This document shows positions 1,864 through 42,492 of a DNA stretch of 42,961 nucleotides, in pieces. Source of the stretch: a virus (taxonomy: Duplodnaviria > Heunggongvirae > Uroviricota > Caudoviricetes); IMG/VR virus record IMGVR_UViG_2531839476_000018, one strand, 5' to 3'. Position numbers and translations under genes: made by a program. The notes under the pieces are model-generated. The model worked only from the letters and a program-made list of their open reading frames with translations. It was not told where the DNA came from and did not search any database. Within the stretch, counting starts at the first letter, position 1, and every line of letters begins with the position of its first letter.

Positions 1864-1867
1864 CAGA

Positions 1868-8440: not shown

Positions 8441-8443
8441 TGC

Positions 8444-9505: not shown

Positions 9506-9507
9506 GC

Positions 9508-13012: not shown

Positions 13013-13015
13013 GTA

Positions 13016-13456: not shown

Positions 13457-13466
13457 TCACTTCCCC

Positions 13467-14612: not shown

Positions 14613-14615
14613 AGC

Positions 14616-16488: not shown

Positions 16489-16675
16489 TTTTTACCTCGT
16501 TACGCGCGTCTGTGGCTTTGCCAACGGATACCTCCGCGTGCGCACGAGTGAACCAGTGCGTGGCAACGTCTTCCTCCACAGCATGACGGCCTTTAAGAAA
16601 CTCGCGCCGTGAACCGTCGGGAAGCGTGAGCACAAACGGGGTATGTACGTGTATTACTGCATTATTTTTTGCCAT
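16454..16675 (-). CDS. Small protein downstream of the capsid gene
   Basis: ATG at 16675 ([14 protein letters not shown]...) with an AAGGA ribosome-binding site; the ORF-track extension to 16906 overlaps the capsid gene and is rejected. Confidence 0.4.
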
Positions 16676-16715
16676 CAGGTCATCCTTAATGACCCCGCCA
16701 GGGGCCATGTGGCTG

Positions 16716-17657: not shown

Positions 17658-17668
17658 TCGTCTGTTCC

Positions 17669-26631: not shown

Positions 26632-26954
26632 TTGCAAATATTTGCAAGTTAATTTCCGGGTGACGGCTAGGTGACGCGTAATTACATATCCGTCACCTGC
26701 TGCAAAGCGCGCCATATAAAGCCTGAAGATGTTTTAGGTGACAGGTGACGGTTGATTTTAGTTCTATATATATATAAGCGATCGTATAATACCTAAAATA
26801 CACACTCTCGCGTATATAGTTTTAAATTCTGCCGTCACCTGTCACCTTTAGCACATTCCCCATTGTTTTATATATACTTTTTAAGGTGACGCTTAAGCGT
26901 TTTGCCGTCACCTAGCCGTCACCTTTTTACAATCCAGATTGCAAAATTTCGCAA
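26632..26954. repeat. Putative replication origin: iteron cluster around an AT-rich core, bracketed by TTGCAA-N4-TTGCAA palindromes
   Basis: About ten copies of the core GGTGAC(G/A)G / C(C/T)GTCACC in both orientations (26659-26751 and 26832-26923) flanking an AT-rich stretch (26760-26830, tatatatatata). Perfect palindrome ttgcaaatatttgcaa at 26632-26647 and imperfect ttgcaaaatttcgcaa at 26939-26954. Adjacent to the primase-type gene. Confidence 0.6.
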
Positions 26955-29188
26955 GATTTATATATTTCGCGCAATTCTTCGTTGCTGAAATCGTTATTTT
27001 TTACAAGAATCCAAATCCTATATACAAACCCGTCAATTTTTACGCGTACGGGTTCCCGCTTTGTTCTTTCTTTCAAAATGCGAGTAATATGCTTCTGGTT
27101 AATTTCTACATCCATTCCTGCTTCTGCCAGTATTGCGTTAACAATTTGTTGATAAGTCATTGCTGGCACAGGCGGATTATCCAGGATTTCAATAAGAGCA
27201 GCCTCCACATCGCTCTTATTGCTTTCAATCATCAGAAGGCGTTCTTTCGTCTCGGGGGCGCGCTGCCAGTTAAAGCGAGACAGGTCAACGCCCATTAGAT
27301 ACCAGTACACCTGGGCGATAAAGTCGCTGTCGCTTAGCGCACCGTACAGGCTGGCGTAATGCTCTTCAGTTGCGGCGAAGTCAGGGCCCCCCAGCACAGC
27401 TATACGTCGGTCTTCCTCTGGCAGCGCCAGCGCATCAAAGTGGTTGGTGTAGAACAGAAAGCCGGTGTATATATCCATCGTTTTTTTGCTGCCATATTTG
27501 CGGTTCACTTCAAACCGTGGTTCTGTCAGCACGTCACGGATCTTATCGTTCACCTCATACCGCTTATCGTTTTCGCGCACCTCGTCAATGGTGCATAGAA
27601 GTGTATTGTACAGATAGTCATGGAACTGGTTATCGCACAGGATCTTCATGCGAGTACGAGCACAGTTCCACGGGCCAAGCACGCGCTCCATTAACTGACT
27701 GACCCATCCTCTGCCCGTACCATGTGCGGTAGCCACATGCAGAATAGAAATCGGGCATCGACGCTCCGGACGCTGAACCATCCACCCCAGACGGGCGATG
27801 AAAAACTCGCGCTGCCAGGCATCAGGTACCAGATACGCCATATGATTAAGGAACGTGGACACCTTACTTGTATCCGCTGTACGTGGATGCTCAGGCATAT
27901 AAAATTCGTTTATCTCAAACCGCCCGTCGAAACGCTCGATAATACGTCCCGCACCGGGCTTATAGCCTGTCGTCTCAGCAATCTTCTTATGCCGATGCTC
28001 TATCCACCGTTTGGTTGCGGGAGTTGGTTGTCCTTTCCCTTCTGGCGGGAACTGGTAAGGCGCCATCAGGTTTTTGAACGACTTCATATCCATCATGCAC
28101 TGATATGGCGGTCGGCTAAGATCACATACCTGGTCACCCTCGATGACGTAGATAAAGCGTTCCAGAAAATGAGCTGTCATATCTGTATTAATATCGGTAA
28201 ATTCAGGCTTATCGCCATCTTCAGCCACCGTGAGATCTTCGAACAGGGATTGCGTATAGCCGTAGCCTTCCAGCCAGTCGGCATCAGTAAGCCCCGCATC
28301 GGTGTTGTGCATGCTTTTAAAATGTCCCTGTTCAAATCCCCCCGTCCCTTTTGGGAAATACTTAATGGATGTTTCGCTGCAACCGTTGCTGTATTCTGAC
28401 TCATCCCGAAACGGTTTCAGATTGCGGGAACCATCAGAGCTGACTGACAGAGTCCACCCGTTCGCGTCAAGCCAGTCGGCGACATCATCTGTCGCGGAAG
28501 GATCAACACAGGAAAGGTCACGCTGACGTCCTGCACCTGCGGTATAGCTGTCTTTCACGGGTAAGTTATCCGCCAGACGCTGCCACAGGCTTTCGAGCTG
28601 TTCAGATGTAATTTTCAGAGGTTCGCCGGGCAAACCGCTGTCCCACTGAATACGTTCGCCTGCCGGATGGGTACCACAAGCCACAAACTGCTGGCCCTTA
28701 GCGAGCAGCTCTATTTGTTTGTTTTCGCCTTCCAGGCGGTGACCACGTTTACGGTAGTCGCCATCAACAGCAATCAGGTACAGGCATTTATGACTGTCAG
28801 CCCGCCAGCGACGTGGCGGAAGTTCCCCCAGGCATGATAGGATAATATTGCGTACGATCTCCTGCATCCCGGCGTCATTGATATCGCAGTCCAGAGCCAC
28901 CACCCCGTCGCCAGTACGAACGCAAATACCGTAATCGGGTTCGTTCGACCACCGGGCAAAATCGTTTTCCGTAACAACATAGTTAGCCCAGTCGGGGATA
29001 CCAACAACCTTACGTTGGCCATTGTAGCGACTGGGGGTTTTGCCGAAATTATGAGACAGCTTGCTATTAGGCGACAGTTCTGCACAGGGATTGGACACCA
29101 CAGGTAAAAGCCTGTCTGTCATCCCCAACACCAGATCGAAGTGGAACCACTCATCGGGCGTAGCTCCCCATGGTTTGTTATCAGACAT
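26927..29188 (-). CDS. Replication protein, primase-polymerase type with a large C-terminal domain (P4 alpha-like architecture)
   Basis: 753-aa ORF directly downstream of the cro-like gene and upstream of the iteron cluster; N-terminal region has a prim-pol-like character (…GICVRTGDGVVALDCDINDAG…). No GxxxxGK[ST] P-loop was seen by eye. Confidence 0.65.
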   Translation of the reverse strand: MSDNKPWGATPDEWFHFDLVLGMTDRLLPVVSNPCAELSPNSKLSHNFGKTPSRYNGQRKVVGIPDWANYVVTENDFARWSNEPDYGICVRTGDGVVALDCDINDAGMQEIVRNIILSCLGELPPRRWRADSHKCLYLIAVDGDYRKRGHRLEGENKQIELLAKGQQFVACGTHPAGERIQWDSGLPGEPLKITSEQLESLWQRLADNLPVKDSYTAGAGRQRDLSCVDPSATDDVADWLDANGWTLSVSSDGSRNLKPFRDESEYSNGCSETSIKYFPKGTGGFEQGHFKSMHNTDAGLTDADWLEGYGYTQSLFEDLTVAEDGDKPEFTDINTDMTAHFLERFIYVIEGDQVCDLSRPPYQCMMDMKSFKNLMAPYQFPPEGKGQPTPATKRWIEHRHKKIAETTGYKPGAGRIIERFDGRFEINEFYMPEHPRTADTSKVSTFLNHMAYLVPDAWQREFFIARLGWMVQRPERRCPISILHVATAHGTGRGWVSQLMERVLGPWNCARTRMKILCDNQFHDYLYNTLLCTIDEVRENDKRYEVNDKIRDVLTEPRFEVNRKYGSKKTMDIYTGFLFYTNHFDALALPEEDRRIAVLGGPDFAATEEHYASLYGALSDSDFIAQVYWYLMGVDLSRFNWQRAPETKERLLMIESNKSDVEAALIEILDNPPVPAMTYQQIVNAILAEAGMDVEINQKHITRILKERTKREPVRVKIDGFVYRIWILVKNNDFSNEELREIYKSCEILQSGL

Positions 29189-29191
29189 GGG

Positions 29192-29392
29192 TTACGCCTT
29201 TTGTCTAGCTGTCACTTCCTGAAAAAGCTTTTCTATCGCACGTACTGTAGAAAAGCGAGGGTCAGAATGAACCCCGGTGAGAAGCCGACTAATAGAAGAC
29301 TGCTTCACGCCTGCAATTTCGGCAATTTGGTTTTGGGTATACCCTGAATCAATCAAGCTTTTGACCATCTCTTGTGGTGTTAGTCCGGACAT
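29192..29392 (-). CDS. cro: Cro-like HTH regulator
   Basis: 66 aa with HTH TQNQIAEIAGVKQSSISRLL; divergent from cI; GGAG ribosome-binding site; first gene of the early-right operon. Confidence 0.65.
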   Translation of the reverse strand: MSGLTPQEMVKSLIDSGYTQNQIAEIAGVKQSSISRLLTGVHSDPRFSTVRAIEKLFQEVTARQKA

Positions 29393-29533
29393 ATTTAAGT
29401 CTCCACTTTCGTCTATAGCGCAAATTTATACGAAAACGGATTATTCAGCAATACGGCAATTCTATATCATCCTGTATTAAAATATCCGATAACGCATAAT
29501 CACCGTCCCTGTATACAACATGGATGAATCCAA
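29393..29533. promoter_or_regulatory. Immunity switch region (divergent cI / cro promoters and operators); individual operators not resolved
   Basis: 141-bp AT-rich intergenic region between divergent repressor genes; candidate promoter toward cro (ATTGCT-16-TATAAA) and CATAAT 24 bp upstream of the cI start. Confidence 0.5.
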
Positions 29534-30208
29534 ATGATTGATACTACCGATATCCTTTCTCAAAACATCAAGTACCTGATGGACAAAACCAAGATAAGCT
29601 CGATAACTGAGCTGGCACGTCGGTTACAGCTGAACCAACCAACGCTACACAGGCTGGTATCAGGAGAGGTGAAAGATCCGAAATACGCAACGTTAAAGCA
29701 GATCGCCGACTACTTCCACGTGTCACCAATAGACCTGGCAGAAAGGAGCCTTCAAGAAATGGAGAAAGAGGACGCGACAGGTATAAAAACGTATATTTCT
29801 CTTAGGTTTAATAAAGTACCTGTTTTGGGAAACACTCAGCTAGGCGTTGGAGGACTTTGGAGCGACACCCAATATTCAGTAGGTAGCAGTGATGGTTTCA
29901 TATACTGGCCGACAAAGGATGAAGATGCATACGCCCTGAAATGTGTTGGTGATTCAATGATGCCTAGAATCAAAGAGGGTGAGTTCGTAATCGTCGAACC
30001 CAACCACGACTACACTCCTGGTGATGAAGTACTTGTGGTTACCCGGGACGGTGAGGTCATGGTTAAAACCTTCTTGTTCGAACGCGATGGCCTGTTCCAT
30101 CTAATGTCTGTAAATGAAGATCATCCACCAGTCAGAGTACCACGCGAAAACATTGAAAAAATCCATTACGTGGCGGGGATCGCCAAATCCGCGCTACGCA
30201 TGTACTAA
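29534..30208 (+). CDS. cI: CI-type repressor (HTH plus LexA-like S24 autopeptidase domain)
   Basis: 224 aa; N-terminal HTH; C-terminal domain with GDSMMP (catalytic Ser) and a downstream Lys (EVMVKTF), as in lambda cI / LexA. Confidence 0.85.
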   Translation: MIDTTDILSQNIKYLMDKTKISSITELARRLQLNQPTLHRLVSGEVKDPKYATLKQIADYFHVSPIDLAERSLQEMEKEDATGIKTYISLRFNKVPVLGNTQLGVGGLWSDTQYSVGSSDGFIYWPTKDEDAYALKCVGDSMMPRIKEGEFVIVEPNHDYTPGDEVLVVTRDGEVMVKTFLFERDGLFHLMSVNEDHPPVRVPRENIEKIHYVAGIAKSALRMY

Positions 30209-30239
30209 CCTTTACAGTCTGATAACTTACCTCTGATCA

Positions 30240-30271
30240 AACCGCTCTCCACAAGGGCGGTTTTCTTATTT
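30240..30271 (+). terminator. Possible terminator after cI
   Basis: aaccgc ... gcggtt stem with a long loop, followed by TTTCTTATTT. Confidence 0.35.
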
Positions 30272-30292
30272 GCAAAATAATTCATTTTTGTA

Positions 30293-30321
30293 TTGACACA
30301 AAATCCCATAACGCATATAAA
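30293..30321 (+). promoter_or_regulatory. Near-consensus sigma-70 promoter (pL-like), TTGACA-17 bp-TATAAA
   Basis: TTGACA at 30293-30298, 17-bp spacer, TATAAA at 30316-30321; directed away from cI into the early-left region. Confidence 0.6.
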
Positions 30322-30356
30322 TACGATACCGCATAATTAATGCATTTTCTAATACC

Positions 30357-30369
30357 AGCTCTTTAACAA
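30357..30369 (+). promoter_or_regulatory. boxA-like element (AGCTCTTTAACAA), candidate nut / antitermination site
   Basis: 12 of 13 match to the rrn boxA consensus TGCTCTTTAACAA (lambda nut boxA is CGCTCTTA); about 30 nt downstream of the predicted start site. Confidence 0.45.
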
Positions 30370-30514
30370 ACAGAACCGCGTGACAGGTAAGCCGCAGTGC
30401 TCCTGGCAAAACGAAATAGCACCCGATGGGATCGAGGTAAGCGCCGAGTCCGTATGCGTACGGTAAGCGTAGAGGACAACACCGCGACGAACTGATAAGT
30501 CACGCAAGTTGAAA

Positions 30515-30532
30515 CGCCCCGATGATGGGGCG
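30515..30532 (-). terminator. Hairpin cgcccc-gatgat-ggggcg; possible terminator for the convergent 172-aa gene, or a boxB-like stem-loop of the pL leader
   Basis: Perfect 6-bp GC stem; on the minus strand it is followed by TTTCAACTT (moderate T-tract). Confidence 0.3.
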
Positions 30533-30635
30533 CTTAGTTCCTTTAACTCTGGGTGACCGGAAGGGTACCCATGCTTAAAGAAATTACTGGTTGTAAGGAT
30601 CGTAATCCGTGATTGCCTTCCCCGGATTTTCATCT

Positions 30636-31154
30636 TCAGAAGGCAGTCGGGCCTCTAAAGCATTTCGGGTTGAACAGATAGGAAGCCCTACAGTACGAAC
30701 AAACCATATTAACGACTCGCCCAAGGCCTGGCTTAGTAACCAGACCTTCCGCTTGCAATATAGATTTTCTCTTTTGCTCGTAGCAATTGGGACAAATATA
30801 AACCGGAGATTGGTCAGCATCTGCAGAAAGCTTGCTGCGATAGACCAGAGTACCCCGCATAGGCTGGTAAAGTTCATAGCTCGCCGCTTCAGCGGCCCAG
30901 TTCTCTTGCTTTACTTTCTCATTTTCCAGTTCAACAATTTTCTCCTTAGCCGCAATCAGCAGCTCCTGAAGCGACATTTGCTGCATCTGAACATCCATTA
31001 GCTTATCGAGTAAGATGTGCGTCTTCTCTTTAACTGCATAGTCGACAGTCAGATTCTGAATCTCTCTTGCTGCTCCAACCGCGCTTTTAATTGCTCCTCC
31101 CACACCGGATAACGATTCAGTTATCCGGGAAAGAATTCCTTTTTCTTCAGACAT
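30636..31154 (-). CDS. Hypothetical coiled-coil protein with a C-terminal zinc ribbon; cargo gene convergent with cI
   Basis: 172 aa; helical N-terminal two-thirds (…LQELLIAAKEKIVELENEKVKQENWAAEAAS…) and CPNCYEQ…CSYCRAS near the C-terminus; has its own upstream region with direct repeats. Confidence 0.55.
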   Translation of the reverse strand: MSEEKGILSRITESLSGVGGAIKSAVGAAREIQNLTVDYAVKEKTHILLDKLMDVQMQQMSLQELLIAAKEKIVELENEKVKQENWAAEAASYELYQPMRGTLVYRSKLSADADQSPVYICPNCYEQKRKSILQAEGLVTKPGLGRVVNMVCSYCRASYLFNPKCFRGPTAF

Positions 31155-31164
31155 ATCTAATCTC

Positions 31165-31220
31165 TCTCAAACTGTAGGGGTGAAGAGATATTAGACGATT
31201 TCTCACTGTAGGGGTACAAG
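31165..31220. repeat. Direct repeats (core ACTGTAGGGGT twice, 34 bp apart) in the putative promoter of the 172-aa gene
   Basis: actgtaggggt at 31171-31181 and 31205-31215, each preceded by tctc(a); candidate regulator binding sites. Confidence 0.4.
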
Positions 31221-31293
31221 GAGAACCACCTCGCCTGATGTGGTTAAAAGCAGGCACTCGATGATATCCATGTAATTGCTGTGTGTAGTCTTT

Positions 31294-31320
31294 GCCCGCC
31301 GCAAGTGACGGGCTTTTTTA
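31294..31320 (+). terminator. Intrinsic terminator (tL1-like) on the plus strand upstream of the early-left genes
   Basis: gcccg-ccgcaagtga-cgggc followed by TTTTTTAT. Confidence 0.55.
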
Positions 31321-31345
31321 TGTCTGAAAGCGCACTCGCAACAGC

Positions 31346-31528
31346 GTGCTCCCCGATATGAAAAAAGGAATACAACCGATGAAACCTGAACACATCCATC
31401 GACTGACGGGGCGCGATGTTCTCCGTTATCGCCGTAAAAACTTCGATTTGATGACCGGTCTGGCCGTTGCCACTGCGCTCGGTCTGATCATCACTTTCAT
31501 TCTCCTTGTAGCGAGGACCACAGTATGA
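31346..31528 (+). CDS. Small membrane protein with an arginine-rich N-terminus
   Basis: 60 aa: basic segment RLTGRDVLRYRRKNF followed by one transmembrane helix (LAVATALGLIITFILLV). Confidence 0.4.
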   Translation: MLPDMKKGIQPMKPEHIHRLTGRDVLRYRRKNFDLMTGLAVATALGLIITFILLVARTTV

Positions 31529-32427
31529 GTTTAGAAACCAGTCTAGAACTTAATAATCAACTTCTGGCACAACATAATGCGCTGCTTGAACGTCTTATCC
31601 GCACAATGGCATCAGGTATTGTTATGCATCCTGACACGATTTCACGAGTGCAGGAATGTCGGGATACAGCAACTGAAACTGAAAATATGTCAGCGGCAAT
31701 GACACTGGATGATCTGGAGTTCAGCGACGTTATCGCACTGGCTGGTTTCTACCCGGTAGCCACCCCTATCACAGAAGATATGCTGCAACGTGCTGTTGCC
31801 TACCGTGATGCTGAAGGCGATAAACGAGTAGTTCAGATTGATGCTCTCGACAGCGCATTGCAGGGCGTCAAACGAGCCAGGGCGCTGCTTAAACCTGCTC
31901 TCCTGGACCTGTCCCGTAACATCCTTAAGTTCTGGGACGACCTGCCAACCATCGGCGAGCGACGTGCTTTTGCCGAGCAGCTACTTGATGCACCTGCAGA
32001 TGGGCGTGATGAAGTTAAGCCGAAAAAGGCCAGTAACAAAGATGGAGAACGCACGGGGCCGTTTTACGTCAAAAATGTATCCGGCACAGCAGCCAGTGAA
32101 CTCCACACCTTACGCAAGTTGAACGAGATGCTTAAAAAAGGCCATATCGAGATCAACCGTGTTGAGTACCTTCAGCTGCAGGAAGAATTTGCACGCAGAG
32201 ACGCAGCAAATTCCAGCCAGAATAATGACGCCAAAGATGACCATACAATTGATTTCGCGGCACTACGCAAACAAGCTGAAGGGTTGATCCTCCAGTTAGC
32301 AAAAGGGGGCTACCGGGCAGAAGCTATTGCAATTCTGGAAAAACAGGGAGCCAGGAAACTTGGTGAAGTAACGGATGAAAATCTCGCTGAAGTAATCACC
32401 CTGGCTGAAAAAGCACTGGAGGGTTAA
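31525..32427 (+). CDS. Hypothetical protein (early-left operon)
   Basis: 300-aa ORF, start overlapping the upstream stop; no family recognised. Confidence 0.55.
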
Positions 32428-32429
32428 TC

Positions 32430-33731
32430 ATGCCAGACGTTCACGCACAACTTTCTCCATCATCAGCGCATCGATGGATGCGCTGCCCAGGAAGTCTGGC
32501 GCTGGAGGCCACACAACCGGATAAAGAAACAACTTTTGCAATCGAGGGCACTACAGCGCACGCGCTTGCTGAAAAAGTTCTACGAAACAGGCAAAGCCAC
32601 CCGGAACACTACGCCGGATGCAATGTTTCTATGTTTCTCGGCTCATACCCCCTTCGCGAAAATCCTGATGATACATCTGGCCCACAGGTGGATGATGAAA
32701 TGGTCGAAGCCGTCGGCCGGTATGTTGATACGGTCTGGACTCTTGCACAGAATAATGAACTATTGGTTGAACAACGTGTTGATTTCTCACATATAACGGG
32801 TGTGGAAGAATCTTTCGGAACTGCCGACGGCATAATCATCGCTGGTAACGAATTACAAATCCACGACCTGAAATATGGCAAAGGCGTCCGCATTGATGCA
32901 GAACAAAATGAGCAACTACAACTGTATGCTCTGGGTGCTCTCGAACAATTCAGCATGCTGTATGACTTTGAGACTGTAAGATTATTTATTCACCAGCCAA
33001 GGCTCAACCACGTTTCAGAATGGTCGTTAACCGTACAGGAACTTCAGTCTTTCGGTGAACGGGCACTGGAGGCCGCAACCAGTGCGATCCTTGTTCTCAA
33101 TATTGCTGAATGCGAAGGCATTGAGACACTACCGCTGGAAAACTTCATACCTGGAGAAAAACAGTGCCGCTTCTGTAAAGCAAAAGCTATTTGCACTGCC
33201 CAGAAAATGCAGCATTTACAAACAGCGGCCAGCGATTTTGAAGATCTGACAAAGCCTGTCAGCGAAATAATCACCAATGCCAGCGCACGTGTACCTCTGT
33301 TAACCATTGAGCAGCTTGCAGAGATCTATAGCCAGGCCGACTTTATTGAATCCTGGCTAAAGGCAGTACGGGACCGGGTTCACGATGAACTCAATGCCGG
33401 ACATCCGGTACCGGGGTTTAAACTGGTAACAGGAAAACAAGGTAACCGGGCCTGGAGTGATGAAGAGGCAGCTCGCGCACTTCTGAAGGACCAGTTCAGG
33501 TACAAAACTGAAGAAGTATTCGACTTTAAACTTATTAGTCCCACAAAAGCCGAAAAACTTATCAAAAAGGCCAGTCCGCGCCGTTGGTCAAAAGTCGAGG
33601 CACTGATAACACGAGCTGATGGAAAACCCACCGTCGTTCCCGAGTCAGACCCACGCCCCGCACTCAATATCAACCCTGTAAATGATTTCGACGACGTATC
33701 CGACGATACGCTAACCGCAGACCTCATCTGA
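32430..33731 (+). CDS. PD-(D/E)XK-type nuclease (DUF2800 / Cas4-like) with a C-terminal Cys cluster
   Basis: N-terminal [15 protein letters not shown] signature and a C-terminal [10 protein letters not shown] cysteine cluster, as recalled for DUF2800 phage exonucleases. Confidence 0.65.
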
Positions 33732-33746
33732 TTTAAGGAAATACCC

Positions 33747-34295
33747 ATGAAACTGAAGCTGAACAATGTTCGTCTGGCCTTCCCGTCTCTGTTTGAAGCT
33801 AAAACTGTAAACGGCGAAGGCGATCCGCGTTTCTCCGCAGTATTTTTAATGTCTCCCAAACACCCACAACTGGAAGAAATCCGTAAAGCTATGAAGCAGG
33901 TAGCGAAGGAAAAATGGGGAGAGAAGTGGGAGCCCATTTATAACCAGCTGGAGAAAAAACTCAATCTGTGCCTGCATGATGGTGATGAAAAAGCAGAGTA
34001 TGAAGGCTTCCCCGGTAATTTCTTCCTGAATGCTGCTAACAAAGCGCGCCCAGCTGTTCTTGATCGCGATCGTTCGCCACTTATTCAGGCTGACGGACGT
34101 CCCTATGCAGGGTGCTATGTAAACGCCGTTATCGATATCTGGGCACAGGACAATAATTTCGGTAAACGCATTAATGCCTCACTCGGCGGAGTCCAGTTCC
34201 TGCGAGACGGCGATGCATTCGCTGGCGGCGGAGTGGCAAGCGCTGACGATTTCGACGATATCAGCGAAGGTGCTGATGCTGAAGCACTAATTTAA
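33747..34295 (+). CDS. DUF2815-type phage protein (putative ssDNA-binding partner of the DUF2800 nuclease)
   Basis: N-terminus MKLKLNNVRLAFPSLFE typical of DUF2815 as recalled; directly follows the nuclease. Confidence 0.6.
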   Translation: MKLKLNNVRLAFPSLFEAKTVNGEGDPRFSAVFLMSPKHPQLEEIRKAMKQVAKEKWGEKWEPIYNQLEKKLNLCLHDGDEKAEYEGFPGNFFLNAANKARPAVLDRDRSPLIQADGRPYAGCYVNAVIDIWAQDNNFGKRINASLGGVQFLRDGDAFAGGGVASADDFDDISEGADAEALI

Positions 34296-34310
34296 CCCTA
34301 CTTCATAGAC

Positions 34311-34329
34311 GCCCGGTTAAACACCGGGC
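34311..34329. other. Hairpin between convergent genes (gcccgg-ttaaaca-ccgggc)
   Basis: Perfect 6-bp stem between the 3' ends of the DUF2815 gene and AT-rich island 1; no strong T-tract on either side. Confidence 0.3.
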
Positions 34330-34347
34330 TACTGATTAGGCGTATAA

Positions 34348-34542
34348 TCACTCAGGAATCTTAATCTTTCTCAATTCTTTATTTAGTTCACAGATCTTTT
34401 TCTTAGACGGGAAAGTATCATACATCCAAAAACCAACAGTCTCTAAAACTATTATCATAACCATATACACAAGATAATTTAAAAGGCCTTCATTTTGCCC
34501 TATGGAAATAATGCAGATAATAGAAAAAAGGGTAAACAGCAC
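34348..34542 (-). CDS. AT-rich island 1, distal ORF (membrane protein fragment); possibly the frameshifted C-terminal part of one gene
   Basis: 64-aa hydrophobic ORF overlapping the upstream ORF in another frame across an A6/T6 homopolymer (34524-34529). Confidence 0.4.
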   Translation of the reverse strand: MLFTLFSIICIISIGQNEGLLNYLVYMVMIIVLETVGFWMYDTFPSKKKICELNKELRKIKIPE

Positions 34543-34976
34543 AAAACACAGAAAGGAAAACAGACGACTAATAATAAATAAAAAACCTGAAAAATCAACA
34601 TTAATAAAAACACTCCGTTATCTTTCTCTATATAATTCTGAAGCTTAATCAACTGATTTATATACTGTCTTTTTTCTAATCTATTGCAAATGTAAATAAC
34701 ATCTCTTCGGTTATAAGATGATTGCAATTTCAGCGCATCACGAATAATTTTATCATTTATTCTTTTTTCTATGGCACTCTTATCCTCCTCATCCAGATAA
34801 CGTTCATACTTAACTAAATATAAAATTAACTTCTTAACATATTTAGGCTCTTTATACTTATAATTAAAAATGATCTTTCTTATCCAGACTCCCATAACAA
34901 TCAAACATGAAAAAATATATCCAGCTATTTTCTCCAGATGCTCTGTATGGTCAATCAAGTATTGGATCATATGCAT
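34500..34976 (-). CDS. AT-rich island 1, proximal ORF: membrane protein of unknown function (cargo, antisense to the early operon)
   Basis: 158 aa with an N-terminal TM helix, a charged middle and a hydrophobic C-terminus; flanking intergenic DNA and the gene are visibly more AT-rich than neighbouring genes. Confidence 0.5.
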   Translation of the reverse strand: MHMIQYLIDHTEHLEKIAGYIFSCLIVMGVWIRKIIFNYKYKEPKYVKKLILYLVKYERYLDEEDKSAIEKRINDKIIRDALKLQSSYNRRDVIYICNRLEKRQYINQLIKLQNYIEKDNGVFLLMLIFQVFYLLLVVCFPFCVLCCLPFFLLSALFP

Positions 34977-35022
34977 AATTAATCTTTTAATCAGTTAATA
35001 GAATAAAAACCAAGGTAAACAC

Positions 35023-37086
35023 ATGTCCAATATACTATGGGGCGACCTGGAAACCTATTGCGAAATCCCTATTACGAACGGTACCCATGCGTATGCCGAA
35101 GGCGTTGAAGTGATGCTTTTCGCATGGGCTATCAACGACGGGCCAGTAAACGTGTGGGATATCACTGCCGGTGGTGGTATTCCACACGGCTTATACGAAG
35201 CAATCGCAGACCCTGAAACCCTGCTTTATTTCCATAACTCTCACTTCGACCGCACCGTTCTGCGTTATGCAATGCCGCGCCTGGCACCGCCAGTCGAACG
35301 TTGGCGCGACACAATGGTGCAGGCGCTGGCGCACGGCCTCCCGGGGTCTCTGGGGGAACTCTGCGAAATACTCGGCGTCCCGCAAGACAAAGCGAAGGAC
35401 AAAGAAGGTAAAGCGCTGATCCAGCTGTTCTGTAAGCCACGCCCGAAAAACAGCAAACTGCGTCGGGCCACCAGTAAAACCCACCCGGAAGAATGGCGGC
35501 GCTTTGTTGCTTACGCCGGACTGGATATCGAGGCAATGCGCGAAGTCTATAAACGTCTGCCGAAGTGGAATTATCAGGGGACAGAACTGGCGCTCTGGCA
35601 TCGTGATCAGCAGATCAACGACCGGGGCGTCTGCATGGACATTCAACTCGCGCGCGCTGCGATCGAAGCGGTAGACCAGGAGCAAAAGCGCCTGGCAAAG
35701 CGTACACAGGAAATGACTGATGGCGAAGTGCAGGCAGCCACACAACGAGACGCGTTGATTAAGCACATTGTTGAATCCTACGGTGTGGAGCTACCAGACA
35801 TGCAACGCAGTACTCTGGAACGTCGTATTGCCGACCCCGATTTACCATCTGCCGTGAAAGAACTGCTGGCTATCCGCCTGCAGGCCAGTACTACCAGCAC
35901 CAGTAAATACAAGGCACTGATGAAAGGCGTAAGCCACGACGGGCGCTTACGCGGTACGCTACAGTTCTGCGGGGCGTCACGTACCGGTCGTTGGGCCGGA
36001 CGGCTATTCCAGCCCCAGAACCTTCCCCGCCCTTCACTAAAACAGGAACAAATAGACGAAGGCATCGAAGCACTGAAAGCCGGATGTGCAGACCTGCTGT
36101 TTGACAATATCATGGAACTAACCAGTTCAGCGTTACGTGGCTGCATTATCGCGCCAACAGGCAAAAAGCTGGTGGTAAGTGACTTGTCGAACATTGAAGG
36201 CCGTATGCTGGCATGGCTGGCGGGAGAAGAATGGAAACTGAATGCATTCAGAGAGTACGACGCCGGAACGGGTCCGGACTTATATAAACTGGCGTATGCA
36301 AAAGCTTTCGATATTGCACCAGATGATGTTGATAAACACATGCGTCAGATCGGTAAAGTCATGGAACTCGGTCTGGGTTATGGTGGTGGTGTGTCGGCCT
36401 TCATCACTTTTGCACTGGTTTACGGTCTCGATCTCGACGAGCTGGCGAACGCCGCACTACCAAACATTCCCCGCGATGTTATCCGCGAGGCGAAAAGCTG
36501 GTACGACGAATCGGTTAAACGCAAGTCAACCTACGGGCTTTCTGAACGGGTATTTATCGCCTGCGACTCACTTAAACGTCTCTGGCGCCGGGCGCATCCC
36601 GCGACCTGTGATTTCTGGTACGAACTGGAGCGCACCGTCCGCACTGCAATCGCCACACCGCAAAAAACATTGTATTGCGGTTATCTTAAAATCCGCCGCG
36701 ATGGCGCGTGGCTGCGCATACAGCTACCATCCGGACGCGCTGTATGCTACCCGTCTCCGGTTATCGAAAAAGGGAATATCACCTACATGGGGGTTAACTC
36801 TTATTCGCGTAAATGGCAACGACTCAAAACCTACGGCGGAAAGCTGGTGGAGAACATCACCCAGGCGGCCGCCCGCGACATTCTGGCCGGAAACATGCCG
36901 CTTATCGAAGATGCCGGTTACAGCATTGTGCTGACGGTACACGACGAGGTGATCACCGAAGCACCTGACACAGAAGATTTCAACGATAAAGCGCTTTCCG
37001 CGCTTCTCTCCACTGACCCCGAATGGGCGCCCGATATCCCACTGAACGCTGGCGGTTTTGAGGCGTACCACTACAAAAAAGATTGA
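35023..37086 (+). CDS. Family A DNA polymerase (phage type, with N-terminal 3'-5' exonuclease-like domain)
   Basis: 687 aa; polymerase motifs recognisable: motif A-like [15 protein letters not shown], motif B-like [16 protein letters not shown], motif C LTVHDEV. Confidence 0.85.
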
Positions 37087-37150
37087 TATAACTCACCTTA
37101 TCGAGCTATGGCGACATGCTGAATTCGAGTAAATTAAAGGAACAATACTT

Positions 37151-37912
37151 ATGCAGGAACTAACTGAAATGCCGATCACCTATCCATACCCGAGAGAAAC
37201 TTTTCCTGACTTTTTGAGGGAGTGTGGGTTCACCAATTTTTCCCACGAACAGCGTGAGACTTGTGACTGCTATCGTTTAACGAATGGCGTAATTGTTAAC
37301 CTTTACACCACCCGGACCATTCAGTTTCAAGGTAACCCTCAAGAACGTCCCAATGTTGAAACTGCAATAATGACCCATTTAGGAACGCCGCCCACGGCAA
37401 CACCACTAGCCGTAGAACAGCCATCTGAGCTCCCCAAAAAGATATTCATTGTTCACGGCCATGACCATACTGCAAAGGAGCAACTTGAGCTAATCCTTCA
37501 TAAACTTGGATTACCAGACCATTTCATTTTGCAGAATACGGGAGGGACTGGACTCACCATTATTGAAGAGCTTGAACGTGAAATTGGGCAAGGACAAACT
37601 GCTACCCGTTTCGGGATTGTTCTTTTGACACCTGATGATATGGGATACTCAAAGCGCGCCGGTGAAGCAGAAATCCAACCCCGCGCAAGACAGAACGTTG
37701 TACTCGAGATGGGTATGCTTCTTTCGTCCTTAGGGCGCAGCAATGTAGCAATCCTTCAGAAACAGCACCTAGAACAGCCTTCTGATGCTAACGGGATTTT
37801 GTATCTGAATTTCAACGACCATGTACGTGAAACAGTTCCTCGTCTAGTGCAACGGTTACAAAATTCTGGTTTCGAATTTACACAAGCTCAAATAGCTAAC
37901 GCTTCCTCGTAA
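37151..37912 (+). CDS. Hypothetical protein with a C-terminal TIR-like / nucleoside-deoxyribosyltransferase-like motif set; candidate defence effector
   Basis: 253 aa; residues about 100-250 contain KIFIVHGHDHTAKEQLELIL … GIVLLTPDD … NVVLEMGML, resembling TIR-like (COG4271-type) domains as recalled; unknown N-terminal 95 aa; AAGGA ribosome-binding site; own terminator. Confidence 0.4.
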   Translation: MQELTEMPITYPYPRETFPDFLRECGFTNFSHEQRETCDCYRLTNGVIVNLYTTRTIQFQGNPQERPNVETAIMTHLGTPPTATPLAVEQPSELPKKIFIVHGHDHTAKEQLELILHKLGLPDHFILQNTGGTGLTIIEELEREIGQGQTATRFGIVLLTPDDMGYSKRAGEAEIQPRARQNVVLEMGMLLSSLGRSNVAILQKQHLEQPSDANGILYLNFNDHVRETVPRLVQRLQNSGFEFTQAQIANASS

Positions 37913-37935
37913 TTACCCCTTATTGTTGATTACAA

Positions 37936-37960
37936 CCCTGCATCGCGGGGTTTTTTATTT
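37936..37960 (+). terminator. Intrinsic terminator after the TIR-like gene
   Basis: ccctgc-atc-gcgggg stem (one G-U pair) followed by TTTTTTATTT. Confidence 0.55.
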
Positions 37961-37975
37961 GGGAATAAAAACCCT

Positions 37976-38110
37976 ATGTCATTTAAATACCGGGACAGTC
38001 CGCTTTATTACCGGACTGTGCGGGAGGCTTTGCACCTTGAACAGTCCGGCGGGTACGACCGGGCGATGCAGGTCTGGGCCAAAGCGAACGTCGGTTTGAT
38101 TTTTGTCTGA
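37976..38110 (+). CDS. Possible small ORF (44 aa)
   Basis: ATG at 37976, stop TGA at 38108-38110; weak ribosome-binding site; not in the ORF track (under 60 aa). Confidence 0.2.
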   Translation: MSFKYRDSPLYYRTVREALHLEQSGGYDRAMQVWAKANVGLIFV

Positions 38111-38146
38111 TGCAGAACATGCGCGAAAAGCGTAAGGAGGTGGACG

Positions 38147-38341
38147 ATGTCTAATATCGATAATAAGGGTTGGGGGTTCCCCGCTCTGTCAAAAAAAGCA
38201 CATTTCTTTAATTCGGGGGAAGCCATATCACTATGCGGAAAATGGATGTTCATAGGTATCAGGATTGATGAATGGCATGACCATCCTGAGAACTGCGCTA
38301 TCTGCATGAAGAAACGCAAAAAGCAGGAAGGCGAAAGCTAA
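38147..38341 (+). CDS. Small Cys-rich protein
   Basis: 64 aa with C…C…CAIC; stop overlaps the VRR-NUC start. Confidence 0.4.
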   Translation: MSNIDNKGWGFPALSKKAHFFNSGEAISLCGKWMFIGIRIDEWHDHPENCAICMKKRKKQEGES

Positions 38342-38628
38342 TGGCCTATGAACGTGAAAACCTAATCGAAAAGCACCTCGTCGCTGAAGTAAAAAAGGCT
38401 GGCGGGGTTGCCTTTAAGTTCGTATCCCCCGGTCGCCGCTCGGTACCAGATCGCATTGTTCTGCTACCCGGCGGTCGTATCATTTTCGTTGAATGTAAAT
38501 CCCCCGGCAAGCCACCACGGCCTGACCAGTTGCGCGAACACGGACGGTTGCGCGCGCTGGGCTTTACCGTAGTGGTGCTGGATAGCAAAAATCTGGAGGC
38601 CATTATTTTAAGCCGCAATAAAGGATAA
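38341..38628 (+). CDS. VRR-NUC domain nuclease
   Basis: 95 aa with PDRIVLLPGGRIIFVECK (PD…(D/E)xK core) as recalled for VRR-NUC. Confidence 0.7.
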   Translation: MAYERENLIEKHLVAEVKKAGGVAFKFVSPGRRSVPDRIVLLPGGRIIFVECKSPGKPPRPDQLREHGRLRALGFTVVVLDSKNLEAIILSRNKG

Positions 38629-38640
38629 AAGACTTATGCT

Positions 38641-39273
38641 TTAATCCGTATTTTTAACACGTATTTCGAAACACCCTTTTAATTTAGCTATTTCCTTTTT
38701 AGAGGACATGATTGTGAATCTCATCCCTTTTAAATCATTAACAAATTCAAATTTTGCGCTATTTGACTCACAATCACCAACAACAAAACCACTACCAAAT
38801 GAATTGAGCAACACTTTAGTATTACTACCATCTACCATATAATATTCGTTATTTTTAAATGCAGTAACCTTCCCGAATGTATAGCTCAATATCAACAACG
38901 TTATCACCCCTAAAGGAAAAGCTGACTTTAGGATTTTTAAATCGATATAATAAAATACGTTCTTATACTCTGCAAGCCTCCCAAATTTTCTAATGCTCTC
39001 CATATGATGTTCGTGTCTCTTACTATGGATTGGCATGGACACCACATTGTGATAATTCAACAAAAGCATAGCAAATAATAAAATATCCTGAACACTCATC
39101 ACAGAAGTTTCGGAGAAATAACCAAAAGGCCAATGAAATCCTATTATACAAATATTAGCCATTAGCATAACAACTATAAATACAATAAATGGAACATAAT
39201 ATTTCCCTTTCAAATCAAACATCAACGCCGCATATAAGGCGCCGAGAAATAAAAAACTAAAAACAAAAGCCAC
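38641..39273 (-). CDS. AT-rich island 2, distal ORF: polytopic membrane protein of unknown function (cargo, antisense)
   Basis: 210 aa with several TM helices followed by a soluble C-terminal domain; AT-rich. Confidence 0.5.
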   Translation of the reverse strand: MAFVFSFLFLGALYAALMFDLKGKYYVPFIVFIVVMLMANICIIGFHWPFGYFSETSVMSVQDILLFAMLLLNYHNVVSMPIHSKRHEHHMESIRKFGRLAEYKNVFYYIDLKILKSAFPLGVITLLILSYTFGKVTAFKNNEYYMVDGSNTKVLLNSFGSGFVVGDCESNSAKFEFVNDLKGMRFTIMSSKKEIAKLKGCFEIRVKNTD

Positions 39274-39437
39274 ACAGCCGAATACAATAGCGTATTTAAG
39301 TCTATTTTAATAAAAAGGTCTGGATAGCCATAATACGATGCAACACCTTTCTGAAAAGAATATGCCATCGCATAAGCTAACGCTGAAAACATAGTTAATA
39401 AAGAAACTTGCTTTGTAAATATTTTCGCCAGGGGCAT
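39222..39437 (-). CDS. AT-rich island 2, proximal ORF (membrane protein fragment); possibly the frameshifted N-terminal part of one gene
   Basis: 71-aa hydrophobic ORF overlapping the 210-aa ORF in another frame across A/T homopolymer runs (39247-39269). Confidence 0.4.
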   Translation of the reverse strand: MPLAKIFTKQVSLLTMFSALAYAMAYSFQKGVASYYGYPDLFIKIDLNTLLYSAVWLLFLVFYFSAPYMRR

Positions 39438-39500
39438 ACCCGCCTCCGTTAGTTATATATATAGAGAGAGAAGTGACCATATTCTACCATAGGTGTATTA

Positions 39501-40895
39501 ATGAATAGCATATTCCACCCCAGAGTTTATCAAAACCTCATAATCAATCACCAAACTAACATTCTGCGCGGCAACATCTGGGCGGGTATGGGAATGGGTA
39601 AAACCGTGGCAACGCTCACTGCGCTGGAAGATCTCTTTATGGCAGGGGCAGAAACATGCCCCGCACTGGTCCTCGCGCCGCTGCGCGTGGCTGCCAGCAC
39701 ATGGCCGGATGAAGCACTGAAGTGGGGACATTTGCGCAATATCGAGGTGCAGCCAATTATTGGTAATGCCAAAGCGCGCTCTATGGCGCTGACGAACAGC
39801 AACGCAAGCGTGTTCACCATCAACTACGATAACCTTGTCTGGCTGATTGAAGAATTGGGAGAACGATGGCCGTTCGGTACTGTCATTCCAGATGAAAGCA
39901 CCCGGCTAAAATCCTTCCGGCTGCGCGGTGGTGGTAAGCGCGCGGCGGCGCTGGGCAAAGTGGCGCATAAGTATGTCCGGCGCTGGATAAATCTCACCGG
40001 TACGCCAGCACCGAACGGCCTGGTAGATTTGTGGGGACAATCGTGGTTTGTGGACCAGGGGCAACGTCTCGGGCGCACTTACGGCGCGTTTACCTCACGC
40101 TGGTTCAACTCGATACAGTTTCCGGGGCAGAGCTGGACCAAACTGGAGCCTTTTGCTCACTCACAGGGTGAAATACAGCGAGCGTTAGCCGATGTAACCC
40201 TCTCGCTGGATGCGGCCGACTGGTTCGATATCAAAGACCCCATCCATAACGTAATCCGCGTGGATATGCCACCGAAGGCCCGTCAGCAGTATCGTGAAAT
40301 GGAAAAGGAAATGTTCCTCGAGCTGAATGGCGAAGGCATCGAAGCACCGAACGCCGCGGCAAAGACACTGAAGTGTCTGCAAATCGCCAGCGGCGCAGTA
40401 TACACAGATGACACCGGAAGTTGGTCAGAACTGCATGACACCAAACTACAGGCGCTGGACAGCATACTGACCGAAGCAGCTGGCGCACCTGTGCTGGTTG
40501 CTTATCACTGGAAACACGATCTTGAACGCTTGCTTAAAGCATTCCCTCGCGGTCGTCACCTCGACCAGGATCCACAGACACTGCGCGACTGGAATTCCGG
40601 AAAGATTCCTGTTCTCTTTGCACACCCAGCCAGCGCGGGCCACGGCCTGAACATGCAGGACGGCGGAAATATACTGGTATTTTTCTCACACTGGTGGGAC
40701 CTGGAGCAATATCAGCAAATTATTGAACGTATCGGCCCCACCAGGCAGATACAGGCCGGACACAATCGTCCGGTATTTATTCACCACATTATTGCTGCCG
40801 ACACTATGGATGAAATGGTGATGGAGCGGCGCAACTCAAAACGAACAGTGCAGGACATCCTGCTCGATGCCATGAAAAAGAGAGGTATAGCATGA
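39501..40895 (+). CDS. SNF2-family helicase / ATPase
   Basis: 464 aa; Walker A GMGMGKT, DEXx-like VIPDEST, and C-terminal helicase motifs. Confidence 0.8.
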   Translation: MNSIFHPRVYQNLIINHQTNILRGNIWAGMGMGKTVATLTALEDLFMAGAETCPALVLAPLRVAASTWPDEALKWGHLRNIEVQPIIGNAKARSMALTNSNASVFTINYDNLVWLIEELGERWPFGTVIPDESTRLKSFRLRGGGKRAAALGKVAHKYVRRWINLTGTPAPNGLVDLWGQSWFVDQGQRLGRTYGAFTSRWFNSIQFPGQSWTKLEPFAHSQGEIQRALADVTLSLDAADWFDIKDPIHNVIRVDMPPKARQQYREMEKEMFLELNGEGIEAPNAAAKTLKCLQIASGAVYTDDTGSWSELHDTKLQALDSILTEAAGAPVLVAYHWKHDLERLLKAFPRGRHLDQDPQTLRDWNSGKIPVLFAHPASAGHGLNMQDGGNILVFFSHWWDLEQYQQIIERIGPTRQIQAGHNRPVFIHHIIAADTMDEMVMERRNSKRTVQDILLDAMKKRGIA

Positions 40896-41092
40896 GCGAG
40901 AAACCCGACGATTTACTCACCCCGGATGAAGTATGCCAAAAGTTAGGTATTACACAGAAAACGCTATGTGAGTGGAATATTAAGCATCGTCATCGGGCTA
41001 TCCTGGCACCAATTCGTTTCAGTGCAAAAGTAGTTCGTTATGAGCGCCGAAATATCGACGCTTTTATTCAAAAATGTCGCAGCCAGTATTAA
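40892..41092 (+). CDS. Excisionase / AlpA-like HTH regulator
   Basis: 66 aa with HTH LLTPDEVCQKLGITQKTL; adjacent to and convergent with the integrase. Confidence 0.6.
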   Translation: MSEKPDDLLTPDEVCQKLGITQKTLCEWNIKHRHRAILAPIRFSAKVVRYERRNIDAFIQKCRSQY

Positions 41093-42492
41093 CCTCGCCG
41101 CCGTAGCAATGCCACCTGCGCAAGTATGCTCCGCTCGTGAGCCTCGAAAGCTTCGCGCTTCAACGCAATCTCTTCCTGTAAAATCTCATCAGAAAAGTCG
41201 TAATGTTCTGCCATCGGGTCATCTGACTTGCTGGAGTGGTGAAGGCAAAGGAGGCTGATTTCCCTTCGGTCTGAGCGGGAATAGCCTCTTTCCTTCATCA
41301 AGGCAATAACATTGCTCTTAAGGAATTTACGGCACATCGTATTAAATGCACCGTCTTTCCCTTTAACAGTCCCATCATGTTTTATTCCTTTTACAGCCCC
41401 GTCCGGGCTGTATGTTTTCACCAGCTTATCCAGTGATCGTTTTGAAAATGGCTGCATTGGATCACGTGGCTGCAAAAATACATAATCCCTGTTGCACTCA
41501 GGAACTGAATCACGCCAGGCTTTCTGCTCGTCGATAATCCGCCGGATCTCAGGGGTTATCGGCAGGCGGAAAGCCTTTTGTGTTTTCATAGCCCCTCGCA
41601 TGCCGATAACCCCTTCCGGATAAACAATTTCACCAGCCTCCTCGTGAACGTAGTCCCAGCGCAGGTTATGGACATTAATCGGACGAACACCAGTGATGAT
41701 CATGAAGCGAACAGCATTCTTCTGGTGTACAGAGGTGCAGGCAGCAACATTGAGCCAGAGTCGGGCGATTGATTCAATATCGGTAAAAAGCCGTGTGGGG
41801 GTAGGTTTCTGTACGCGGGAGGAAACATAATCATCTGGCAGACTGGCGGCAACATTGCGGCCGTTGCAAAGAGTAGGTGCGCAGAACTTCCAGAACCGAC
41901 GGAGCTCGGCAAACAACTCCAGGGCGTTATTGTTCGAGCGAGTAGCGATCCACTCGTCCAGCACTTCCACCAGCCGATTGTATGTTACGTCGCTGAACAC
42001 CTCGCGCTCGCCGAACGTTGCTTTAATCCGGTCGATACGCACCCCGTAGGTTGTGAAACTGTCCGGGCTCAGCTTCTGCCGGGCGACTTTGGCTTTGAGG
42101 TCATCCCGGTACATTTCCAGCGCTGCATGTACGGACTCTGCCCGCAGGCCACCGTCAGCCATACCTAGCGCTTTTTCGCGCGCCAGCTGGATAGCGAGCT
42201 CCGGCCACTCGCCGAGCTTTTTACCTTTGAGGCCCATCTTTTTTGGAAACTCGGCGTAAAATGTAACCTTACCGGCTTTGCTGAAATCGATACGGAGATA
42301 GTTCTCTTTTTCGTATTTGGAACGGCGAGCCACGCCGGAAGCAGCGAGGATGATTTTGGCGGCAGCAACACAGATTTTCATGTGTGCGCTAGTATAGGGG
42401 GGTTTACAGGCGTCCCATTTTTCAGAAGCGGCTAAAACATCGTCATTATTGGGGCTATCCGGATTATGTGTTACAGTGCGCGGCATTCTCAA
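41089..42492 (-). CDS. int: Tyrosine site-specific integrase
   Basis: 467 aa; C-terminal catalytic region with …LCLHHSSK… and …AEHYDF… (candidate catalytic Tyr); located at the prophage end beside host yfhL. Confidence 0.8.
   Translation of the reverse strand: MRMPRTVTHNPDSPNNDDVLAASEKWDACKPPYTSAHMKICVAAAKIILAASGVARRSKYEKENYLRIDFSKAGKVTFYAEFPKKMGLKGKKLGEWPELAIQLAREKALGMADGGLRAESVHAALEMYRDDLKAKVARQKLSPDSFTTYGVRIDRIKATFGEREVFSDVTYNRLVEVLDEWIATRSNNNALELFAELRRFWKFCAPTLCNGRNVAASLPDDYVSSRVQKPTPTRLFTDIESIARLWLNVAACTSVHQKNAVRFMIITGVRPINVHNLRWDYVHEEAGEIVYPEGVIGMRGAMKTQKAFRLPITPEIRRIIDEQKAWRDSVPECNRDYVFLQPRDPMQPFSKRSLDKLVKTYSPDGAVKGIKHDGTVKGKDGAFNTMCRKFLKSNVIALMKERGYSRSDRREISLLCLHHSSKSDDPMAEHYDFSDEILQEEIALKREAFEAHERSILAQVALLRRRG

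Follow-up and report, generated by a model that had tools for sequence, protein, structure and literature searches.

An arginine-type P-loop in the predicted initiator-primase-helicase of a temperate Escherichia coli phage whose replication genes are split across the repressor switch

Whether a prophage that carries two sets of replication genes also carries two replication systems, and whether its primase-type protein can act as a helicase with no canonical Walker A motif, are the questions raised by the IMG/VR virus record IMGVR_UViG_2531839476_000018. This stretch of 42,961 nucleotides (the window) comes from a virus of the Caudoviricetes and is a temperate Escherichia coli phage or prophage; the region discussed here is 98% identical to phages vB_EcoM-606R2, 611R5 and 689R2, and the window is also a member of a prophage family integrated beside yfhL in E. 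coli IAI1. Its two gene sets diverge outward from a switch formed by cro (minus strand) and cI (plus strand). The rightward set, on the minus strand, runs from cro through the gene of a 753-amino-acid (aa) primase-type protein, a 265-bp repeat region and a small open reading frame (ORF) to the antiterminator Q and the lysis and late genes. The leftward set, on the plus strand, begins with cI, a terminator-like hairpin, a reverse-strand gene and a 300-aa protein, continues through DUF2800, DUF2815, a family-A DNA polymerase (PolA), a TIR-like gene, VRR-NUC and SNF2, and ends with an excisionase-like helix-turn-helix (HTH) protein (Pfam HTH_17) and the integrase. An initial annotation of the window had interpreted these sets as two distinct replication systems, had seen no recognisable P-loop in the 753-aa protein, and had suggested that helicase function may reside in the SNF2 protein. 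The gene inventory on which it drew (the 753-aa primase-type protein and the DUF2800, DUF2815, PolA, VRR-NUC and SNF2 set) is right as judged by Pfam, PHROG and motifs, but genome comparison identifies one conserved phage replication and recombination machine, split across the repressor switch, and not two systems. Within this machine, the 753-aa protein is probably an initiator-primase-helicase resembling the PriRep proteins of Staphylococcus aureus pathogenicity islands (SaPIs), with an origin of its own from which it would feed the PolA replisome.

The gene of the 753-aa protein lies at 26927-29188 (minus strand), and its product is predicted to be an initiator-primase-helicase from Pfam, from its match to PHROG 1156 ("DNA primase") and from its fold. 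The protein can be divided into an archaeo-eukaryotic primase (AEP) Prim-Pol region (residues ~1-330), a D5/NrS-1-like collar with a superfamily 3 (SF3) helicase domain of the DUF5906 type (~331-640), and a winged-helix-like tail (~640-753). The hidden Markov model search that the initial annotation had called for finds both catalytic domains above their cut-offs: Prim-Pol at residues 75-185 (E 2e-7, 31.8 bits against a cut-off of 22.8) and DUF5906 at residues 488-595 (E 1e-13, 52.4 bits against 27.6). The AEP catalytic residues D100, D102 and H174 are invariant in ten homologues. By sequence, the sole solved relative is the helicase region of the phage NrS-1 polymerase (PDB 6K9C; E 6e-8). An AlphaFold model of residues 331-753 (predicted local distance difference test, pLDDT, 90; predicted template modelling score, pTM, 0.81) is matched by Foldseek to the whole NrS-1 C-terminal region (6K9C; E 3e-22, TM 0.64), followed by poxvirus D5/E5, SaPI5 PriRep (E ~1e-9, TM 0.55), PriRep1 and the PrimPol of African swine fever virus. 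Conservation is highest in the helicase half, at ~80% identity versus ~55% for the N-terminal part (Serratia, Izhakiella). At residues ~258-300 (28290-28420, minus strand), relatives from Citrobacter, Serratia, Xenorhabdus and Arsenophonus carry a Cys/His motif, CPFEDGHS...HFKCLHASCAH, that resembles a zinc site; the window protein and protein P0022 have a version of this central motif that lacks the cysteines, PFRDESEYSN...HFKSMHNTDAG.

The canonical GxxxxGK[ST] motif is absent from the 753-aa protein, as the initial annotation had noted by eye; a regular-expression scan of the protein finds neither G.{4}GK[ST] nor [AG].{4}GK[STG]. The sole GxG[KR][STG] segment is GTGRG at residues 490-494. 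This lies within ATAHGTGRGW (residues 486-495; 27704-27733, minus strand), in which Arg493 is encoded by an AGA codon at 27710-27712. HGTGRGW (489-495) aligns residue for residue with QGTGKG (449-454) of NrS-1, with Arg493 at the position of Lys453. In the model, a strand at 481-485 and a helix that starts at 493 enclose HGTGRGW in the strand-loop-helix arrangement of a Walker A motif. The view that the P-loop is missing is therefore not borne out: alignment and a confident model place HGTGRGW on Walker A, as a predicted variant in which only the lysine is replaced, by Arg493. The remaining catalytic residues of the SF3 site are kept, namely D535/E536 of Walker B, N562/K564 of the hairpin (NrS-1 K525), N582 of motif C, and the fingers R594/R595 (NrS-1 R555/R556). 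In an alignment of 35 sequences whose columns average 27% identity, E536, N562, K564, N582, D593, R594 and R595 do not vary, and D535 is present in more than 90% of the sequences. These retained residues match those shown to be functional in NrS-1.

The arginine is not peculiar to the window. Among the matches listed, 259 of the 262 related cluster representatives and partial sequences that cover the column have Arg there. A first search gives Arg in 53 of 54 homologues, partial sequences included, down to 43% identity; the exception is a 454-aa fragment (P0053) that is misaligned there. In an exhaustive search of clusters at fifty-percent identity (E up to 0.001), the best 150 of 9040 representatives were listed and 92 of these cover the Walker A column; 91 have Arg, and the exception (P0182, 23% identity) reads GDGKS. 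A profile search finds Arg in 115 of 116 proteins, with a gap in the remaining one. Two sub-clades can be distinguished: GTGRGW proteins fused to Prim-Pol, as in the window, and, in Burkholderia, Ralstonia and Bordetella, GxGRNW proteins of ~500 aa that have no Prim-Pol. Across lineages the arginine is encoded by AGA, AGG, CGC, CGT and CGA, and thus by both Arg codon families. Although a single transition would turn AGA or AGG into a Lys codon, no Lys was found inside the clade among the sequences examined. A sequencing error at codon 493 is ruled out, as 46 complete E. coli genomes and all relatives share the Arg. Judged from these alignments, the arginine is a clade character and not a lesion, and GxGR[GN]W appears to mark a large clade of D5/NrS-1-like SF3 helicases spread over enterobacterial and pasteurellacean prophages and betaproteobacterial integrative islands. 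The lysine is kept in the characterised or isolated-phage relatives NrS-1, Chi, BcepNazgul, Vibrio LP.1 and Stenotrophomonas S1. Literature searches returned nothing relevant on GTGRG, on Arg replacing the Walker A Lys, or on phages vB_EcoM-606R2, 611R5 and 689R2, and the accessible portions of the DUF5906 literature describe no arginine variant. As far as could be found, the arginine clade is a real, widespread and apparently undescribed variant. An arginine that is invariant in more than 250 diverse representatives, within an otherwise intact SF3 site, is the part of this locus most worth attention.

Directly beside the gene of this protein lies a candidate replication origin (26659-26923). 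The iteron origin proposed in the initial annotation is real in that ten iterons of the form GGTGAC[GA][GC] are present, although they fall just outside the interval to which it was assigned; the array starts 4 nt past the stop codon of the 753-aa gene. The iterons are arranged as a mirror image, five per side, with orientations +,+,-,+,+ in the left arm and -,-,+,-,- in the right arm. Between the arms, an AT-rich centre (26752-26831, 74% A+T) contains TATATATATA. When one mismatch to GGTGACGG is allowed, the other 48 matches are scattered over the remaining 42.7 kb, a density that predicts ~0.3 matches per 265 bp. In SaPI origins, 6-12 iterons directly follow rep; they are divided equally between the two flanks of an AT-rich centre, with those on one flank opposed to those on the other, and the Rep or PriRep helicase reads them through its winged-helix domain (PMC9371898). 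The window origin has the same layout: its iterons follow the gene on the 3′ side, flank an AT-rich centre and face in opposite directions across it.

In every relative examined, an iteron array occurs at the same place, 3′ of the primase gene, and its core varies by lineage around GGTNNCRG. The core is GGTGACGG in the window, GGTGACAG in Izhakiella and Erwinia, GGTAACAG in Serratia and Arsenophonus, GGTTGCAG or GGTGGCAG in the two Xenorhabdus types, and TGACACAG in Limnobaculum. The drift of the core between genera, and even within Xenorhabdus, is orderly (GGTGACGG, GGTGACAG, GGTAACAG, GGTTGCAG, GGTGGCAG), and this series, found between the primase stop codon and Q, constitutes a ready-made set for studies of protein-DNA specificity. 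In four Xenorhabdus proteins, residues 646-724 show the strongest contrast by iteron type (identity 0.92-0.97 within a type versus 0.72-0.80 between types), and the whole C-terminal half trends likewise. In the model, residues 640-753 are arranged as H-E-H-H-E-E, a winged-helix topology. A Foldseek search with the isolated last 114 residues returns winged helices of Cdt1, cullin, ORC2 and Fur at the top, none of them significant (best E 0.011).

Comparison within E. coli reveals what is exchanged between related prophages. The first ~330 residues of the 753-aa protein are also found, at up to 97% identity, joined to a VapE domain (PF05272) instead of DUF5906; this figure belongs to the VapE proteins of prophage cluster P0046, which come from the same E. 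coli prophage family, and not to the IAI1 protein itself. Among 5426 complete E. coli genomes, the polymerase gene is present in 159 and the arginine-type domain in 46. The prophage of E. coli IAI1 (NC_011741.1 2748257-2769320; locus coordinates 1207-3679) encodes a VapE-type protein, WP_001284069.1, within an otherwise matching gene set: it shares with the window its integration neighbourhood and cro, cI, DUF2800, DUF2815, PolA, TIR, VRR-NUC, SNF2 and the integrase, but differs in having a VapE P-loop domain with lysine, and iterons of the form GGAACCAC, around TATATATATA, in place of GGTGACGG. VapE forms keep the Walker lysine, within GPQGCGKS or SQQGKNKS, and the Xenorhabdus VapE form is accompanied by a repeat of the GGTTGGTA / CTGTACCA type. 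Modular exchange, raised in the initial annotation to account for the co-residence of two systems, does occur, but the swapped cassette is the C-terminal helicase/DNA-binding domain together with the origin, and not a whole replication system. Because this swap takes place in near-identical prophages, it suggests that the arginine- and lysine-type domains do the same job and may be functionally equivalent. The paired swap of arginine-type DUF5906 for lysine-type VapE in near-identical E. coli prophages also provides a natural control.

What, then, would the arginine site do? The remainder of the site is under strong purifying selection, and on this basis the reading that we place first, though at even chances, is that the Arg493 site still binds and turns over nucleoside triphosphate (NTP). 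The stronger proposal, that GxGR[GN]W proteins are fully active replicative helicase-initiators that use arginine for the "invariant" Walker A lysine, is put forward tentatively from these conservation patterns. Several points weigh against such readings and against the initiator-primase-helicase assignment as a whole. In P-loop ATPases, replacing the Walker A lysine by arginine is the classical way to abolish hydrolysis. In the accessible part of the NrS-1 study, Lys453 contacts a bound phosphate and K453A abolishes both dCTPase activity and unwinding (PMC7102993), and SaPI Walker A Lys-to-Ala mutants lose replication (PMC9371898). No characterised arginine-type protein appears in the literature searched. 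The winged-helix assignment of the tail is a working hypothesis drawn from topology and from Foldseek matches short of significance, and in Xenorhabdus common descent by itself could account for the link between tail and iteron type. If the Cys/His residues seen in relatives form a zinc site that is needed for priming, the primase activity of the window protein could differ.

Some of these points lend themselves to an alternative in which the arginine P-loop binds nucleotide without hydrolysis, so that the 753-aa protein would be an origin binder or melter and a primase, with host DnaB or another partner unwinding the fork. Walker A Lys-to-Arg substitutions typically keep nucleotide binding and strongly cut hydrolysis, as in RecA K72R and Rad51 K191R, and the lack of a characterised arginine-type protein in the literature searched also speaks for this alternative. 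In addition, SaPI Reps bind and melt origins without ATP (PMC9371898). Nonetheless, even distant members of the clade all keep the Walker B Glu, the motif C Asn, the DNA-binding hairpin Lys and the two arginine fingers, residues that degenerate AAA+ sites usually lose. The alternation of the arginine-type domain with lysine-type VapE in otherwise near-identical prophages also suggests equivalent function, and no DnaB-loader-like gene is detected in the region by Pfam and PHROG scans. A non-hydrolysing P-loop is thus possible, although we consider it doubtful. The fixation of Arg in a large replication family allows two readings: either Arg works in this geometry, or the proteins are nucleotide-gated origin openers and not motors. 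If the former is true, an active arginine P-loop would be a case from nature in which the rule that Lys-to-Arg abolishes hydrolysis does not hold, and might bring altered nucleotide preference or kinetics.

A further alternative, in line with the initial annotation, is that replicative helicase activity comes from the SNF2 protein, which would make up for an SF3 domain that is dead. The SNF2 ATPase motifs GMGKT and DEST are intact, and the gene is conserved in the module. SNF2-family enzymes, on the other hand, translocate on duplex DNA and remodel branches, and are not fork strand-separating enzymes. SNF2 is also found equally beside lysine-type primase-helicases (E. coli IAI1, phi2958PVL, SETP7), so it does not compensate specifically for the arginine variant. 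Moreover, arginine-type proteins occur where SNF2 does not. GTGRNW-type proteins of 500-537 aa, without Prim-Pol, are encoded in ~9-kb integrase-AlpA-DUF5906 islands that lack both polymerase and SNF2, as in Bordetella petrii (AM902716.1, locus 8097-17700) and Burkholderia cepacia (LPIF01000004.1, locus 7713-18050), and in both islands the GxGRNW protein is the only recognisable replication protein. By their gene content, these islands look like P4-like satellites or satellites of the phage-inducible chromosomal island (PICI) type that replicate with an arginine-type helicase. A helicase role for SNF2 is weakened accordingly and appears improbable.

The number of systems was addressed by fetching loci that encode relatives of the 753-aa protein and searching their flanks for proteins of the leftward operon. 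In GTDB, 16 of 17 loci from ~9 genera (including Izhakiella, Serratia, Arsenophonus, Xenorhabdus, Limnobaculum, Erwinia, Symbiopectobacterium and Sodalis) have cI/cro followed by the DUF2800, DUF2815, PolA and VRR-NUC set in the same divergent layout. PolA itself is found in 15 of the 17; one locus has DUF2800 and DUF2815 without a PolA match, and one is a 7.5-kb contig with an uninformative flank. An Avibacterium prophage (36% identity) has the same layout, SNF2 included. Among the IMG/VR loci with at least 8 kb upstream, DUF2800 and DUF2815 are present in all 66 and PolA in 65. Near-constant association of this kind is the outcome that the initial annotation had itself named as speaking against two systems. 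Furthermore, Pfam and PHROG find no initiator, origin-binding protein or primase in the leftward operon. Given that this set has no initiator or primase of its own and co-occurs almost constantly with the 753-aa gene, the two operons are best regarded as complementary halves of one replisome.

The same association is found outside this family. Distant PolA contexts were taken from a phage collection, as a PolA protein search gave only relatives at least 88% identical. The unrelated phages Staphylococcus phi2958PVL and Salmonella SETP7 share DUF2800, DUF2815, PolA, VRR-NUC and an SNF2-type helicase with the window, always with a primase-helicase (VirE in phi2958PVL, a "primase/helicase" in SETP7). 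They differ in that all of these genes stand in one co-directional operon, whereas the window, like the entire Enterobacterales/Pasteurellales prophage family, has its primase-helicase and origin across the cI/cro switch, in the operon that reaches Q and the late genes. In Chi-like and Nazgul-like phages, the polymerase is paired with a DR0530-like primase that is homologous to the C-terminal domain of the 753-aa protein. The duf2800-gp2.5-polA module has already been described and named (PMC8093625). The replisome gene set is therefore known and widespread; what is lineage-specific is only the way it is divided around the immunity switch. That a primase/iteron replicon and a PolA system, each self-sufficient, were joined by modular exchange is highly unlikely, since the separate divergent operons, and the arginine-type DUF5906 proteins that stand alone without Prim-Pol in small betaproteobacterial islands, are outweighed by the nearly exceptionless co-occurrence of both sets in this prophage family, by the absence of an initiator, origin-binding protein or primase from the PolA set, and by the constant presence of a primase-helicase beside that set in the other phage lineages examined.

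In a single split machine, the 753-aa protein would be initiator, primase and probably fork helicase, by analogy with SaPI PriRep and the phage NrS-1 polymerase. It would bind the ten iterons 3′ of its own gene, probably through its winged-helix-like C-terminal tail, and its hexamers may load on both sides of the AT-rich centre and open it. The N-terminal AEP Prim-Pol domain would then prime, and PolA would elongate. The gp2.5-like DUF2815 protein may coat and anneal single strands, while DUF2800 would supply a nuclease. The VRR-NUC resolvase and the SNF2 translocase would serve recombination-dependent replication and the processing of branches.

The two closest models differ from the window in several respects. 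The NrS-1 polymerase has the same succession of AEP Prim-Pol, collar, DUF5906 helicase domain and tail, is both the best sequence and the best fold match, and its Walker B, hairpin Lys and RR fingers align with those of the 753-aa protein. It differs, at ~16% identity, in its P-loop (447-GKQGTGKG-454, with catalytic Lys453 in place of Arg493), and in the accessible portions of the literature its tail fold is described as unique, whereas the tail of the 753-aa protein is winged-helix-like. No iteron origin beside the NrS-1 gene came up in those portions. SaPI Rep and PriRep5 (PDB 7OLA, 7PDS) share with the window a primase-helicase fusion and downstream iterons about an AT-rich centre, the fold comparison being of residues 331-753. 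The hosts differ, and so does the type of element: SaPIs are satellites relying on host polymerase, and the window is a complete temperate phage that encodes PolA itself. The SaPI Walker A lysines (K186, K521) are required for replication, whereas the 753-aa protein has Arg.

At the switch itself, a cro-like HTH regulator (29192-29392, minus strand; Pfam HTH_3) is the first gene of the rightward operon, which runs into the 753-aa gene, and its position is kept in relatives. On the other side of the switch is a CI-like repressor with an HTH domain and an S24 peptidase domain (29534-30208, plus strand), after which comes the terminator-like hairpin (30239-30263). This hairpin is a clean one; promoter-like sites at the cI/cro and origin regions show no excess over shuffled sequence. 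The antiterminator Q of the rightward operon lies at 25911-26333 (minus strand).

The first large gene of the leftward operon encodes the 300-aa conserved protein of unknown function (31525-32427, plus strand; PHROG 6784, E 1e-179), homologues of which are found upstream of DUF2800 in nearly all relatives. The following replication and recombination genes are likewise on the plus strand. DUF2800 (32430-33731) is a PD-(D/E)XK nuclease by Pfam (E 2e-110) and PHROG 69 ("exonuclease"), and DUF2815 (33747-34295; E 8e-44) is an Enc34-type, T7 gp2.5-like single-stranded DNA-binding and annealing protein. The family-A DNA polymerase with 3′-5′ exonuclease (35023-37086) keeps all catalytic motifs; the exonuclease motifs DLET, NSHFD and YAGLD and the polymerase motifs DLSNIE, RQIGK..GLGYG and HDE were all found. 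The VRR-NUC nuclease (38341-38628) matches PHROG 93 ("endonuclease", E 8e-31), with Pfam VRR_NUC below its cut-off (17.2 versus 23.8 bits), and is a probable junction resolvase. The SNF2-family ATPase (39501-40895) is probably a fork or branch remodeller rather than a fork helicase. DUF2800, DUF2815 and PolA are adjacent in that order with VRR-NUC and SNF2 downstream, and the order is identical in relatives, phi2958PVL and SETP7. NCBIfam has no family for the 753-aa, DUF2800, DUF2815 or VRR-NUC proteins.

Several further genes are found within and beyond this operon. A reverse-strand moron of low GC content (~0.37) between DUF2815 and PolA (34348-34976, minus strand), for which no family was found, has a 1-nt deletion in a T6 run near 34610 that breaks it into ORFs of 158 aa and 64 aa; in phage 606R2 and E. 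coli IAI1 the gene is intact and encodes 209 aa. The TIR-like gene (37151-37912, plus strand), found between PolA and VRR-NUC inside the replication operon, has matches to PDC-S35, a PADLOC candidate defence system (E 7e-109), and to the Pfam CAP12/Pycsar TIR family (E 3e-31). It is accessory, being present in only 12 of 66 related viral loci. Downstream of SNF2, the 66-aa excisionase-like HTH_17 protein (40892-41092, plus strand) is encoded by a gene that overlaps the SNF2 stop codon and precedes the integrase (41089-42492, minus strand), a 467-aa protein with a weak match to Pfam Phage_integrase (E 4e-7). Finally, a hydrophobic 210-aa ORF between VRR-NUC and SNF2 (38641-39273, minus strand) matches no family; its slot is filled by different genes in phage 606R2 and in IAI1, and therefore behaves as a variable moron site.

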